Part shown: positions 1 to 8,598 of the stretch, in pieces | Position numbering within the stretch: the stretch's first letter is position 1 | Layout: the number at the start of each line of letters is the position of its first letter | Virus record (IMG/VR): IMGVR_UViG_2778261639_000008 | Span: 1 to 15,090 of that record | DNA length: 15,090 nt | DNA from: a virus | Taxonomy: Duplodnaviria > Heunggongvirae > Uroviricota > Caudoviricetes | Strand: one strand, 5' to 3' | Translations under genes and position numbers: made by a program | Notes under the pieces: generated by a model | What the model saw: the letters and a program-made list of their open reading frames with translations, nothing else | Database searches by the model: none | What the model was told of the DNA's origin: nothing

Positions 1-97
1 CGGCCGTTTGGTAGTACTTAGGATAGCCAACCATCAGATGCTGCATTTGCATAGTGCAATCTCCCCTTACTTATCCGGAGGCAATTGCAATATCTCT

Positions 98-268
98 GTG
101 AACTTACACACTTTGTTTTACAAAGGAGTTTTTTTGTTCATCGCGATTTATATCGCGGCGCTACTGGCATATACCGCTCTAAACCGGACGCTTTGCGAAG
201 CGTCAATAGGACAGGGAGATGTGCAAGTGGCGGCAAAGTTTGCCTACGAAGCTAAGGAGAGTCGCTAA
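98..268 (+). CDS. hok: Hok/Gef-family type I toxin (small membrane host-killing peptide)
   Basis: The C-terminal 50 residues of the frame (FYKGVFLFIAIYIAALLAYTALNRTLCEASIGQGDVQVAAKFAYEAKESR) match the Hok/Gef pattern: one hydrophobic helix, then R-x-LCE, G, VAA and AYE, as in Hok [28 protein letters not shown]. The frame is open to the window edge, so the start is uncertain: GTG 98, TTG 113 (gives a 52-aa Hok-sized product) or TTG 134 (5 nt after the AAAGGAG at 122-128). Stop TAA 266-268 is followed directly by a GC hairpin. Confidence 0.6.
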   Translation: MNLHTLFYKGVFLFIAIYIAALLAYTALNRTLCEASIGQGDVQVAAKFAYEAKESR

Positions 269-272
269 ATCA

Positions 273-297
273 GGGCGGGGGTAACACCCCGCCTTTC
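273..297 (+). terminator. GC-rich hairpin immediately after the hok-like stop (mRNA 3' stem-loop or weak intrinsic terminator)
   Basis: GGCGGGG (274-280) pairs with CCCCGCC (287-293) around a 6-nt loop, followed by TTTCT. The U-tract is short, so this may be a stabilising 3' structure rather than an efficient terminator. Confidence 0.45.
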
Positions 298-330
298 TGA
301 CTGCGATCCACAGCCTGAGCACCTTTAAAC

Positions 331-360
331 GCCGCTCCTTCGGGGGCGGCTTTTCTTTAT
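331..360 (+). terminator. Rho-independent terminator
   Basis: GCCGCTCC (331-338), TTCG tetraloop, GGGGCGGC (343-350): an 8-bp stem with one G-U wobble, followed by TTTTCTTTAT. Confidence 0.65.
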
Positions 361-489
361 CTGCTGTTACCTCTCGCACAATCTTTTGTCTTATCTCATC
401 AAAAAACCATAATGGCATCTGCCACGGACAGGTAGCGAACTGCCTGTTTAACTGACTTTTAGCCATTGCATTACTCTTTGTGATGTTGA

Positions 490-523
490 GCCATTCCGCC
501 CCCGGAGTGGCTTTTTTTATTTG
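490..523 (+). terminator. Rho-independent terminator
   Basis: GCCATTCCG (490-498), loop CCCC, CGGAGTGGC (503-511): a 9-bp stem with one G-U wobble, followed by TTTTTTTATTTG. Confidence 0.65.
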
Positions 524-600
524 TACTACACGCCAGCGGTAACGCTGTTTTTGATCCTCCTTTTTCCTCGCTACGCTGCAAGCCTCACAAAGGGGGCGTT

Positions 601-1146
601 GTGACCATAAAAATAAGTAAACGAGATGATGTGTTTGCAAAGCTGGTAGCCAGTGAGCGGGAAGCGCCTGGATTCAGCTATGCAAAATCTCGCAACAGAG
701 AATACAAAGGTTTCAATGATGATTATCAGGCTGAAAAGTTGCTTAAAGACAACGAGATACAACAGGCCGTTAGCGTTTATCGAAAACACATCATTGCTAA
801 AGATATTGTTGGCAGACAGGAGGCATTGATTGACCTTTCAGCCCGTTTCCGTGCGCCAGACTCAACAGCGGTAATGCTGGAGTTACAGGCACTGGAGAAG
901 TTGCGCCTTGAACCGGAAGTGTTCCGTAGCCGTCTGGCGGCAATCGACACCAGAGCCATAAAAAATATCAAACGCACAAAGCATGGCTGGCAGGTTGAAG
1001 GGCTTGATAAATCACACCTTGCGGCGCGGATACTTTCGCTGGCGGGTGTTGATGTAAGTAAACCAATAACTGACGAGGGCAAACGAATCGCGCGAGACAC
1101 GCTGACTGAAATCTACAGGGATATTGGCGGCGATGACAGCGATTGA
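601..1146 (+). CDS. terS: Putative terminase small subunit
   Basis: 181-aa ORF with GTG start 6 nt after the AGGGGG Shine-Dalgarno at 591-596. Its stop overlaps the start of the large terminase gene (ATG 1133), the usual terS-terL arrangement. Assignment rests on position and size; I did not recognise a specific family from the sequence. Confidence 0.55.
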   Translation: MTIKISKRDDVFAKLVASEREAPGFSYAKSRNREYKGFNDDYQAEKLLKDNEIQQAVSVYRKHIIAKDIVGRQEALIDLSARFRAPDSTAVMLELQALEKLRLEPEVFRSRLAAIDTRAIKNIKRTKHGWQVEGLDKSHLAARILSLAGVDVSKPITDEGKRIARDTLTEIYRDIGGDDSD

Positions 1147-2542
1147 AATAACGCCAGAGAACGACCTAGAGCGCCGTAATTACTGGCTTTCTGACAAAAA
1201 GAAAATGTCAGAGTGGCGGCGAACAATGCGAGAGCTGACCACTAAGCCGCACCGCGTAAAGTGTCTGCGTGGTGGTCGTGGTTCCAGTAAATCATGGCGC
1301 ATTGCTGAGGCGTTAATTGAGTTGACTGTGCGTTATGACCTTCGAATTCTCTGTTTGCGTAGGGTACAGAAATCTATAGACGCGTCATCGCATAAGCTAC
1401 TTAGCGACACGATACGCCGTCTTGGTTATGAGTCTGAATTCACGATAACGCAGAACAGCATAAAGGCTAAATCTGGCGCGGAATTCAGGTTTTTGGGCTT
1501 TCAGTCAAATCTCGACAGCATTAAATCCATTGAAGGTGTGGATATTTGCTGGGTGGAGGAAGCACACGCGATATCTGCTGAGGCATGGGAAACGCTTGCA
1601 CCAACACTACGCCGTGAAGGGGCTGAGTTGTGGATTACCTTTAACCCGGCTTTCGCATGGGATGAAACATACGTTCGTTTCGTGCTCAACGCGGAGGATG
1701 ACTGGTTTGTAGAGGAGGTGAACTGGTATCACAACCCGTACTTTAATTCGACTCTGGATAAAGAGCGACGCTACACCCTGAAATATTACCCGGATAAATA
1801 CGACAACATCTGGAATGGTGTTCCTGTCAGTGATTTACCGGGTGCTGTCGTCAATCGTGGTCATCTTGAAAGGCTGGTGGTGTCGCCTGATTCAAAACTG
1901 GCGAAAGCCTGTCGAACTGGCGTTAAAACAGTGGTGCTCGATGTTGCCGATGAAGGTGATGATGATTCGGTGTTGTCTTTCTTTGACGGGCGTTTTTTGT
2001 ACCGTATGGAGCGATTACAGGCACGTGACACTGTTCAGCTAGCGCAGCAGGCGTTAAAGCTGGCAGCAGAGGAAGGTTGTTCCGTACTGATTTATGACTC
2101 TGTAGGCGTTGGTTCAGGTGTTAAAGGCGAACTTAACAAATACGAAGATTCAGACATTGAATTTCGTAAGTTTGTGGCTCAGGGCGAAGTGTTGCGCAAA
2201 AAATCCCGCTATCGCGGGGGGAGAGCCAACGAAGATACTTTTCACAACCTACGTGCTCAAGCGTGGTGGGCGTATCGTGACGCGGTTAATGACTCTGTGC
2301 GGTGGATGGAAACGGGAATTATGCCGCCAGATGGCTTATTTGCTATTTCAGACCAGATACCACGCCGATATCTCGATCGCATCCTTTCTGATTCTACTGG
2401 CGTCATGTGGGAAACCACGCCAGAAGACAAGATAAAAATTGAAGCAAAACCAAAGGTTAAAAAACGGCTGGGTGTGTCCACGGACTATGCCGACGCCATA
2501 TTCCCCCATCTGGTACGCATGAAATCAGGAATTATAGAATGA
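1133..2542 (+). CDS. terL: Terminase large subunit (PBSX / phage_term_2-type ATPase-nuclease)
   Basis: Deviant Walker A box LRGGRGSSKSW near the N-terminus and a Walker B-like acidic motif (VDICWVEEAH), with a C-terminal acidic nuclease region (VLDVADEGDDDS); 469 aa. The first ATG is at 1133, overlapping the terS stop; the track start at 1124 is a TTG. Ends in an ATGA overlap with the portal gene. Confidence 0.9.
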   Translation: MTAIEITPENDLERRNYWLSDKKKMSEWRRTMRELTTKPHRVKCLRGGRGSSKSWRIAEALIELTVRYDLRILCLRRVQKSIDASSHKLLSDTIRRLGYESEFTITQNSIKAKSGAEFRFLGFQSNLDSIKSIEGVDICWVEEAHAISAEAWETLAPTLRREGAELWITFNPAFAWDETYVRFVLNAEDDWFVEEVNWYHNPYFNSTLDKERRYTLKYYPDKYDNIWNGVPVSDLPGAVVNRGHLERLVVSPDSKLAKACRTGVKTVVLDVADEGDDDSVLSFFDGRFLYRMERLQARDTVQLAQQALKLAAEEGCSVLIYDSVGVGSGVKGELNKYEDSDIEFRKFVAQGEVLRKKSRYRGGRANEDTFHNLRAQAWWAYRDAVNDSVRWMETGIMPPDGLFAISDQIPRRYLDRILSDSTGVMWETTPEDKIKIEAKPKVKKRLGVSTDYADAIFPHLVRMKSGIIE

Positions 2543-3891
2543 CGAACAAAACCAGCTTAATTCCCACTGAGGGAATTCTAACAAAAGAGGGCTTACAGCC
2601 TGCCAGCTATAACATTGACAGCTACGTAACCATGATGGAAAGCGTGTCACATGGTGTTAAAGGTGCTGCCGGGATGGGTTCGCCAACGGCAAATCGGATG
2701 AAGGCCAGAGCCGCAGAGGGAAAAATTCCACTGGTGGCGGCTCTGGCTGGCGAAACATCCGGGATAGGCTGGCGCATCATCAGCGAACCGGTTGCTGCAG
2801 CGATGCTAAACGGGTTCGATATCATCACCGATAAACCGGAGGATGATAAAAAAATAAAGCAACTGTTTGATGATATGCGCATCTGGCAGAGCGTCGAACG
2901 CGCCACTGTGCTTAAACGTCATCAGGGCTGGTCGGTGCTGGTCATGGGTGATGATTGGGTTAGAAGCCATGGCGCAAACTGGATTACACCGTCAAATGAT
3001 TGGTTTTCTGATTATAACGACCCGCTTTTCGGTCTGCCGGAAGGCTGGCGTATTCAGCTTAAAAGCCCGATTGGTGGCGAGGTTTTTATTGAGCAAGACG
3101 ATTCACTACTTTTTGGCGATCCAGAGTACCAGCCGATTTACGGTAGTGCAGGTGTCGAATTTGGCGAGCCGGTTCTCTGTAAACCTTATGCATCATTGCA
3201 GCGTCTTGGCCTGTCTCATGAGTTAATCATCAGCATTCTGTCCCTGTCCGTACAGGATATTTATAAAAAAGATGAACTTGCAGAGGATTTAAAGTCAGCG
3301 AAAGGTGAAGCTATGGTGGCGCGTCGTCTGGCTGGTATCGCTGCTACCAGGCATTTGAATGACATGGTGGCAATTGATAAAGATGAAGAAATTACCCGTT
3401 TACAGTCCAGTATGACGGGAACCGCAGACCTTGTTGATATGGCTATCAAGCTGGTGTGCGCCGAAACAGGTTTCCCGGTATCAATGCTGGCTGAACGGCG
3501 GTCAGGACTGTCTAACAGTGATACCAGCGCAGATGCACAATGGCAAAACCTTGTTTCTCACATCACCACCAATGACATTATCCCGGCACTTAAAAAGCTG
3601 ACGTTGCGCTATTTGGGCGTAAAAGCTGACTTTATTCCTAACAAATCTCAGGGGCAGATTGACCGAGAGGTAGACAGGGACAAGAAAGTAGCGGAAACCG
3701 CGCAGATTTATTACCAGATGAGAGCCATCACCAGCGAAGAAGCCAGGGCAACAGCGAAGGAAACAGCCGCCGTAACACTCCTGACTGAGGCAGCGCCAGC
3801 AACAGGCACTATTGATGACCAGAATGACAAGGATTTGAACCAGAACGATACCGAAACCAGCAATAGTGAGGCCAATAATGCCGAAAAGTGA
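2539..3891 (+). CDS. Portal protein
   Basis: 450-aa ORF directly after terL and directly before a Mu F-like gene (SPP1-like order terL, portal, gp7-like). The acidic, low-complexity C-terminal tail (DDQNDKDLNQNDTETSNSEANNAEK) is typical of portals. I think it is the DUF1073-type portal family but cannot verify this without a search. Confidence 0.75.
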   Translation: MTNKTSLIPTEGILTKEGLQPASYNIDSYVTMMESVSHGVKGAAGMGSPTANRMKARAAEGKIPLVAALAGETSGIGWRIISEPVAAAMLNGFDIITDKPEDDKKIKQLFDDMRIWQSVERATVLKRHQGWSVLVMGDDWVRSHGANWITPSNDWFSDYNDPLFGLPEGWRIQLKSPIGGEVFIEQDDSLLFGDPEYQPIYGSAGVEFGEPVLCKPYASLQRLGLSHELIISILSLSVQDIYKKDELAEDLKSAKGEAMVARRLAGIAATRHLNDMVAIDKDEEITRLQSSMTGTADLVDMAIKLVCAETGFPVSMLAERRSGLSNSDTSADAQWQNLVSHITTNDIIPALKKLTLRYLGVKADFIPNKSQGQIDREVDRDKKVAETAQIYYQMRAITSEEARATAKETAAVTLLTEAAPATGTIDDQNDKDLNQNDTETSNSEANNAEK

Positions 3892-8238: not shown

Positions 8239-8598
8239 ATGACGGTAAACGATTGGCTTGCCATTCTGCTACCGGGGTTATCACTTGATGAGGGCGCTAT
8301 TAGCGCCCTTTCTTCTCAATGTGAGCGGCTATACGACCTTCGAGCCGCAGCGGATTACGGTTATGACGTAGAGCGCCTCAAAGCGCTGTATGTTGCCGCT
8401 AATCTCGCCCCGATAGCTGTTGAGGGAATAAGCGCCAGTGTTCGCGGGGTGGCAAGCCGCCGTGAAGGGAAAGTTGCAATGACCTTTACTGAGTCAGCAC
8501 AAAAGGCAGGCTGGCAGGGTACTACGTGGGGTGAGGAATTCTCAGACGCTATAGGCACATTGTCTGGTGGTTGTATTCTCATCGGTCATGCCGATTAG
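8239..8598 (+). CDS. Putative head-tail connector/adaptor protein
   Basis: 119-aa ORF at the head-completion position, with GGGG 8 nt upstream of the ATG. Family membership not verified. Confidence 0.5.
   Translation: MTVNDWLAILLPGLSLDEGAISALSSQCERLYDLRAAADYGYDVERLKALYVAANLAPIAVEGISASVRGVASRREGKVAMTFTESAQKAGWQGTTWGEEFSDAIGTLSGGCILIGHAD

Follow-up and report, generated by a model that had tools for sequence, protein, structure and literature searches.

Our preferred reading, to which we assign a probability of about 0.8, is that the window (by which we mean the whole stretch of 15,090 nucleotides of viral DNA analyzed here) begins within a prophage hok/sok cassette that was split by an insertion sequence (IS) of the IS481 family and whose toxin is silenced. 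The main value of this reading lies in a correction. The initial annotation had described a Hok-type toxin whose regulatory half was cut off by the edge of the window; what was supposed to be this unseen half is an IS junction. Because the junction takes its place, the hok gene in the window is probably a defunct remnant rather than a working moron.

The composite nature of the start of the window is evident from a megablast search against complete E. coli genomes, in which the query falls into two parts, 1 to ~115 and 110-1200. The first part matches more than 1,500 E. coli records at 97-100% identity, with features named 'IS481 family transposase', and the second matches three prophages at 79-83% identity over Hok/Gef, a hypothetical protein, and a PBSX family phage terminase large subunit. 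On its minus strand, the window contains the initial 52 nt of the transposase coding sequence, with the ATG being the complement of 50-52, and positions 53-109 consist of the transposase 5' UTR and the terminal inverted repeat (...TTGCAATATCTCTGTGAACTTACAC). The ends of the element were set from a comparison of the IS-free metagenome scaffold L006, the IS-carrying source contig L007, and four further copies of the IS; window position 1 corresponds to L007 9401, and the window and L007 differ at a single position over 11,146 nt. The complete IS is 1,095 bp long (L007 8415-9509), has the ends TGTATGGGTCCAC... and ...GTGAACTTACAC, and encodes a transposase with rve, rve_3, and HTH domains.

The hexamer ACTTTG is present once in L006 and stands on either side of the IS in L007, and the other copies of the same IS are flanked by ACTTTT, ACTCAG, or (T/A)CTTTG. 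Many of the E. coli matches reach positions 112-115, and we considered ACTTTG at 110-115 as IS sequence. This assignment was rejected: since the bases vary between copies and are duplicated on both sides (five insertion sites), the hexamer is a target duplication with an ACT bias, and the native hok sequence begins at 110. An rve transposase, inverted repeats, a duplication, and the empty site in L006 place the element in the IS481 family, where it resembles the ISKpn28-like group in its single DDE (rve) transposase, length of ~1.1 kb, short terminal inverted repeats, 6-bp duplication, and RefSeq naming. The target duplication of IS481 itself is NCTAGN, whereas the duplications of the window IS begin with ACT in most copies (ACTTTG, ACTTTT, ACTCAG), which suggests a target preference unlike that of IS481.

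Three smaller observations on the element may be recorded here. The transposase ORF has no internal stop and reads out through the left end of the IS into flanking DNA (L007, L003, L013, L014, L015); because no stop lies inside the element, the length of the transposase varies by site (348, 356, 358, or 366 aa). In L007, this read-out crosses the Sok promoter region at 8376-8414, in the direction of Sok. Lastly, the subterminal part of the IS contains GGAGGCAA at 77-84, and an identical 8-mer is found in the native sequence at L006 9502-9509, immediately left of the insertion site, where it forms the hok Shine-Dalgarno (SD) sequence and the Sok -35 element. The shared 8-mer is probably due to chance, and it could have a bearing on target choice.

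Contigs with the same prophage were found by exact look-up of the small terminase (terS) protein. Four of these are IS-free copies (L006, L008, L009, and L010), and over the hok locus (L006 9300-9780) all four are 100% identical to both IS-flanking halves of L007. Their alignment places the IS between the SD sequence AAGGAGG and the first TTG codon (TTG1) of hok. Left of the IS stay the hok promoter, the 5' element tac, the mok start, the Sok target, and the Sok promoter and gene, all of them intact; in L007, an Rfam RF01794 match spans 8271-8420 with 86.6 bits and the Sok promoter is retained at 8409-8380. On the other side, the window retains TTG1 without its SD, an internal AAGGAG with TTG134, the ORF, the orphaned 3' pairing partners at 301-323, and the terminator at 331-358. 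The Rfam leader expected directly 5' of the toxin ORF is absent from the window and lies 1,095 bp away across the IS in the same genome. An Rfam scan of the window gave no match to the sok leader, even at E<=10, and the weak Rfam matches at 262-521 (rnk leader, isrK, toxic sRNA, and others; E 0.5-10) were rejected as look-alikes caused by terminator hairpins. Since the leader is displaced here and contiguous in the IS-free alleles, the locus family is a member of the hok/sok systems and the window holds a fragment of it. The same IS junction is also present in an E. coli draft assembly (L012, P0001), and because it recurs in independent assemblies, it is unlikely to be an assembly artefact.

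The anatomy of the uninterrupted locus was taken from the IS-free alleles. RF01794 ('sok'; gathering score 59) matches the alleles of E. coli CX12, ECONIH4, Raoultella scottii, Klebsiella spallanzanii, and scaffold L006 with 84-91 bits, directly upstream of hok, and its 157-nt consensus covers, in the hok-sense orientation, the stretch between the mRNA 5' end GGUGCUUGAGGC and the hok start. We collected 40 intact loci, which reduce to 30 distinct sequences. Both hexamers of the Sok promoter are invariant in these 30 loci, and the predicted 71-nt antisense Sok RNA folds with a z-score of -4.7. This convergent promoter is predicted both in the intact allele and in the left half of L007, and in neither case does it fall within the window. 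Of the 30 distinct loci, 29 have a mok-like start (TTG, ATG, or GTG) at a distance of 8-10 nt from a conserved GAGG. In 23 of the 30, a mok-like ORF begins there, is 38 or 47 codons long, and runs out of frame into the 5' part of hok. In six, including the window lineage, the start is shifted by 1 nt into the hok frame and gives an ORF of 67-69 codons. In the window lineage (L006 9465-9668), the mok-like start would yield an N-terminally extended Hok and not a separate Mok peptide. As with the Sok promoter, the mok start lies outside the window, and its translational coupling to hok is putative. The order downstream in L006 is the hok ORF, a G+C-rich stem-loop, GCCTGAGCACC, and the terminator. 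The features of the locus, inside and outside the window, are listed in Table 1.

Table 1. Features of the split hok/sok locus, its IS-free counterpart, and the prophage slot that it occupies. Coordinates refer to the window unless a contig is named.
Feature	Position	Strand	Remarks
IS481-family IS, transposase-proximal end	1..109	-	97-100% identity to E. coli IS481-family transposase loci; annotated in L003
Target-site duplication ACTTTG, right-hand copy	110..115	.	Includes the native hok start TTG (113-115)
hok toxin ORF	113..268	+	51 aa (MFYKGVFLFIAIYIAALLAYTALNRTLCEASIGQGDVQVAAKFAYEAKESR); start TTG113, end TAA268; Pfam HOK_GEF
Internal AAGGAG (123-128) and TTG (134-136)	123..136	+	Alternative start, giving an N-terminally shortened Hok of 44 aa
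Coding-region element GGCAAAGTTTGCC	234..246	+	Predicted pairing with the SD1/TTG1 region (AGGCAACTTTGT), sequestering the hok start
G+C-rich stem-loop (GGGCGGGG-gtaaca-CCCCGCC)	273..293	+	Just 3' of the hok stop; MFE and consensus folds
3' halves of long-range hok mRNA helices	301..323	+	5' partners now beyond the IS
Intrinsic terminator of hok transcript (GCCGCTCC-TTCG-GGGGCGGC then TTTTCTTT)	331..358	+	
Small terminase terS	601-1146	+	
Large terminase terL (PBSX/Terminase_3)	1133-2542	+	Longest ORF from 1124
-10 element TATAAT	L006 9360-9365	+	Just 5' of the mRNA start
Sok-type promoter TTGCCT-18-TATAAT	L006 9510-9481	-	10/12 consensus matches; -35 overlaps the hok SD
hok SD AAGGAGG and TTG1	TTG at L006 9513 (= window 113)	+	Spacer 5 nt
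Gp49 (PF05973) and HTH_3 pair	L038 1602-2193		Pfam scan; slot = window ~1-460
ORFs near-identical to the Gp49/HTH_3 pair of L038	L037 1599-2196		Same slot
HicA and HicB pair	L060 1598-2190		Same slot

The folding of the intact mRNA is consistent with this assignment. In the minimum free energy (MFE) fold of L006 9372-9757 (386 nt), nt 2-14 are closed onto GCCUGAGCACC with a z-score of -7.4. The mRNA 5' end GGTGCTTGAGGC (tac) has its complement in the fbi-like element GCCTGAGCACC (313-323), and the CTGCGA region (302-306) has its partner in the leader. In the RNAalifold consensus of the 30 sequences, the tac/fbi helix keeps 12 pairs and shows only compatible one-sided changes (G-C to G-U and U-G to U-A), and the adjoining helix carries compensatory changes (CG<->GC, 17:13; GC<->AU, 16:13). 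This long-range pairing is thus a feature of the intact mRNA, of which the window has the 3' halves only. Consensus columns 142-153 pair with 279-291 in 30/30 sequences, in agreement with the MFE fold; because these pairs are invariant, the pairing of the coding-region element with the SD1/TTG1 region stays a prediction. Judged from its sequence, the IS-free locus has the anatomy of a hok/mok/sok system. The antisense Sok RNA and 5' mok frame that the initial annotation had expected of a Hok toxin have their counterparts in these alleles in the predicted Sok promoter and the mok-like start, and the 5'-3' pairing that it had proposed to look for in the full mRNA is present in both the MFE fold and the consensus. 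The convergent promoter that it had proposed to look for upstream is also predicted in the IS-free allele, and in the IS allele it lies across the IS.

The intact alleles share with hok/sok (parB) of plasmid R1 and the chromosomal E. coli hok loci (PF01848; RF01794) a ~50-aa peptide with a single helix, a C-terminal motif of the type ...R..LCE...G..EVAA..AYE, an mRNA 5' end that fits the Rfam consensus, a mok-type start after GAGG, an antisense promoter in the leader, a predicted 5'-3' closing helix, and a stem-loop and terminator after the stop. Unlike those systems, the subfamily in the window is divergent, just below the Pfam gathering score and far below the NCBIfam cut-offs; its start codon is TTG; the mok-like start of its lineage is in frame, giving a 67-aa fusion ORF and not an out-of-frame overlap; and it is located in a prophage next to terS, where in the window it is split by the IS.

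Our current model for the loss of function is as follows. The uninterrupted cassette, which lies between the ERF/Ref recombination genes and terS, forms a transcription unit of its own, with a promoter and an mRNA of ~385 nt whose 5' end (tac) is predicted to pair with the 3' element (fbi). A mok-like start follows GAGG by 8-10 nt, the -35 element of the convergent Sok promoter overlaps the hok SD, and the unit ends in the 51-aa Hok ORF and a terminator. The 1,095-bp IS entered at ACTTTG, between the SD and the TTG start. It left the promoter and tac on its left side together with the mok start, Sok target, and Sok gene, and on its right side the Hok ORF with 3' UTR and terminator. Split in this way, the toxin ORF would be silent both transcriptionally and translationally, and Sok may still be produced.

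The silence of the toxin ORF is inferred by likeness to the IS-inactivated chromosomal hok loci of E. coli. Pedersen and Gerdes (1999) are said to have described hokA, hokC, and hokE of K-12 as loci of this kind. In these loci, as in the window, the IS stands beside the hok frame and not inside it, and uncouples the frame from its regulatory region; the window differs from them in that its element belongs to the IS481 family, lies precisely between SD and start, and made a 6-bp duplication that includes the start codon. Inactivation of chromosomal E. coli hok/sok loci by IS elements is cited in one report (PMC5416894), and recurrent IS150 insertions beside hokC, hokE, and mokB were seen in evolving E. 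coli (PMC5419217). IS disruption is a known fate of hok loci, Rfam already recognizes the leader, and RefSeq already annotates the homologues.

The alternative that fares best, which we nevertheless regard as improbable, is that the decapitated hok is still expressed and functional, with a 44-aa Hok being made from the internal AAGGAG/TTG134 and uncoupled from mok/Sok control. Transcription would either read through from the native promoter or start at the IS end, from a promoter that is weak and faces outward or is hybrid, and the low level of toxin might have a role in persistence or phage exclusion. No plus-strand intrinsic terminator was predicted inside the IS, so the hok promoter could read through the 1.1 kb of the IS into hok, and the internal AAGGAG, a good SD with a 5-nt spacer before TTG134, could then allow translation of the 44-aa peptide that PGAP calls in homologues. 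In addition, the hok ORF of the IS allele carries no disabling mutation and is 100% identical to that of the IS-free allele. However, the insertion looks recent, the IS being 100% identical to E. coli copies, and for this reason the undamaged ORF says little. A consensus scan found no plus-strand promoter-like site in window 1-385 or anywhere in the IS, that is, from the IS interior to hok, as judged by a simple scan to which outward promoters at the IS end would be invisible if they were weak or hybrid, such as TTGCAA at 85-90. An untranslated 1.1-kb antisense read-through RNA should be a good substrate for Rho termination, and uncontrolled Hok would be counter-selected, yet the allele is present in several assemblies. 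Finally, the 44-aa form lacks MFYKGVF and its SD is not conserved in the family.

The last point bears on which start codon hok uses. Within the window, no start other than AAGGAG/TTG134 is still preceded by an SD sequence. Among the 30 distinct intact loci, GGAGGCAACTTTG, which comprises SD1 and TTG1, is invariant in all 30, a conservation that is confounded with that of the overlapping Sok -35 hexamer. The internal AAGGAG is lost in the two most divergent homologues (AGAGCAG in L054 and AAAGCAT in L057), and the seven codons between the two TTGs show conservative changes only (K to R, G to A, V to L, and F to V). Since SD1/TTG1 is invariant, the internal SD is destroyed in L054 and L057, and the frame is kept between the TTGs, the 51-aa peptide would be the conserved product. 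PGAP annotates the 44-aa form, which is without the conserved N-terminal heptapeptide, in CX12, ECONIH4, and others; this call probably results from a wrongly placed start site. We also considered the long in-frame ORFs given by some pipelines (72-89 aa, 'MRQIEKSPEG...') as an extended Hok and rejected them, the frame being closed in L006, CX12, and most loci.

It is extremely unlikely that hok/mok/sok is intact and its regulatory half lies, merely unseen, immediately upstream of the window; the toxin ORF, 3' UTR, and terminator are intact and the layout is normal for the family, but positions 1-109 are IS DNA, and the leader and Sok region are 1,095 bp off across an insertion between SD and start codon. 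Because the window opens with IS, native sequence starts at 110, and the leader is found across the IS in L007, the control region was displaced 1,095 bp upstream and was not cut off by the edge. The extension by ~400 bp that the initial annotation had recommended would meet only transposase sequence.

The frame that closes with TAA at 266-268 on the plus strand codes for a Hok-like peptide ending in ...FYKGVFLFIAIYIAALLAYTALNRTLCEASIGQGDVQVAAKFAYEAKESR, and the full reading of the same frame up to the stop gives ...LFYKGVFLFIAIYIAALLAYTALNRTLCEASIGQGDVQVAAKFAYEAKESR. Two in-frame TTG starts are available, TTG113 (51 aa) and TTG134 (44 aa). The 51-aa form matches HOK_GEF (PF01848) with 21.4 bits and an E value of 2e-4, 0.6 bits short of the gathering score of 22 bits, and matches no other Pfam family; the scores are 20.4 bits for the 44-aa form and 19.6 bits for the 86-codon frame. 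HOK_GEF is also the sole match for nine out of ten natural variants in the subfamily (best E 7.2e-5). The NCBIfam Hok models, whose cut-offs are 73-89, score 14-18 bits. In RefSeq, the homologues are called 'Hok/Gef family protein', a name that the 51-aa homologues of C. freundii and K. variicola also bear. Length and C-terminal motif fit Hok/Gef with a score marginally under the curated cut-off, and the peptide is kept across the 30 distinct loci with conservative substitutions and a frame that is never disrupted. Some alleles (L040 ~2100-2130; protein P0011) have a 9-nt tandem duplication in hok that doubles GQGG and gives a 54-aa Hok.

Searches for further relatives returned little. A tblastn search of the 51-aa Hok against phage and plasmid collections gave no match, which is weak negative evidence since a short hydrophobic query and the low-complexity filter are possibly to blame. 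PADLOC reported nothing for Hok and nothing for the neighbouring 176-aa protein. With blastn and megablast, window 1-1200 found in the phage collection only a weak transposase match, in Klebsiella phage KpF5, and a scan of genome contigs with a conserved hok 33-mer gave matches only in Raoultella scottii and Klebsiella spallanzanii. A minus-strand ORF of 145 aa (203-640), which overlaps hok, three terminators, and terS, is unsupported and was set aside as spurious.

Taken on its sequence, the window opens with a real Hok-type toxin gene of a prophage hok/sok cassette, and the peptide represents a divergent subfamily of Hok/Gef, a well-known family already annotated in RefSeq. The identification of a Hok/Gef-type peptide in the frame ending at 268, just upstream of the terminase genes, therefore holds, with terS starting 333 nt downstream. 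The profile search that had been proposed for it did find HOK_GEF, and the score stayed under the gathering score. The reading of the peptide as 52-57 aa was not confirmed, nor was the 86-codon open frame, as both extend into IS DNA; because window 1-109 is IS, the upstream part of that frame is IS read on the wrong strand. A fortuitous resemblance to Hok, of an unrelated small hydrophobic peptide or of a frame that is no gene, has next to no likelihood in our view: the shortfall of 0.6 bits in Pfam, the NCBIfam scores, and the empty tblastn searches would fit it, but HOK_GEF is the sole Pfam family matched in nine of ten variants, the neighbouring RNA of every intact allele fits the Rfam hok/sok model with 84-91 bits, and 30 distinct loci conserve the peptide with no frame disruption.

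The insertion in the window is one of several in this leader. In L016 (1-114), a different IS481-family element abuts the ACTTTG site as well, although the junction lacks one T; a comparison of 111 nt gives 86% identity to ISKpn28, and the adjoining hok allele is ~88% identical to that of the window. In L018 (2475-3917), an insert of ~1,443 bp with TGTACTG...CAGTACA ends and a CAA duplication lies ~60 nt upstream, in the region of the Sok target and mok start. From its IS150-like ends, we take this insert to be IS150. As far as the sequences tell, these two events are independent of the window IS, and the leader has been struck at least three separate times, in agreement with the known pattern of chromosomal hok loci in E. 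coli. It is possible, though doubtful, that repeated insertion at the hok start region reflects selection or targeting and not accident. Under selection, the prophage toxin could be disarmed and an expressed orphan Sok kept, and if this is true, the orphan Sok would be an 'anti-addiction' antitoxin against related hok-carrying elements. Under targeting, this group of IS could pick the hok translation-initiation region by its sequence or structure.

The cassette occupies a variable position of the prophage. Among 36 IMG/VR contigs that encode a relative of terS, the hok locus is found just upstream in 23 and is absent in 13, two of which (L032 and L042) extend too short a distance upstream for a verdict. 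A gap of only ~180 bp separates the conserved flanks in some hok-less contigs, and in three the slot holds Gp49/HTH or HicAB modules. Since hok/sok, Gp49/HTH, HicAB, or nothing stands there, the position before terS is a slot for toxin-antitoxin cargo, in which this prophage family keeps type I (hok/sok) or type II (Gp49/HTH, HicAB) modules, and from these comparisons the hok cassette appears as optional accessory cargo. For the intact cassette, this supports the earlier proposal of a moron or addiction-type element and not a part of morphogenesis. The precise and repeated IS insertions at the hok start, the in-frame mok variant, and the toxin-antitoxin slot before terS are mildly unusual; slot and insertions leave the current understanding of hok/sok unchanged.

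Two observations concern the DNA that follows. Between the hok terminator and terS (364-600, plus strand), there is a promoter-like sequence TTGTCT-16-CATAAT at 386-413, followed by a strong terminator with an 11-bp stem at 488-519 and a weaker one at 534-553. The 3' part of this region, from ~462-476 on, is conserved even in hok-less relatives. The region could hold a late promoter whose terminators are under antitermination control, as in lambda PR'/tR', or the gene of a ~100-nt small RNA. Further downstream, the homologues of the portal protein (2539-3891; Phage_portal_3, PF06381) in CX12 and ECONIH4 are named 'anti-CBASS protein Acb1 family protein' in RefSeq, which looks like an error of annotation transfer.
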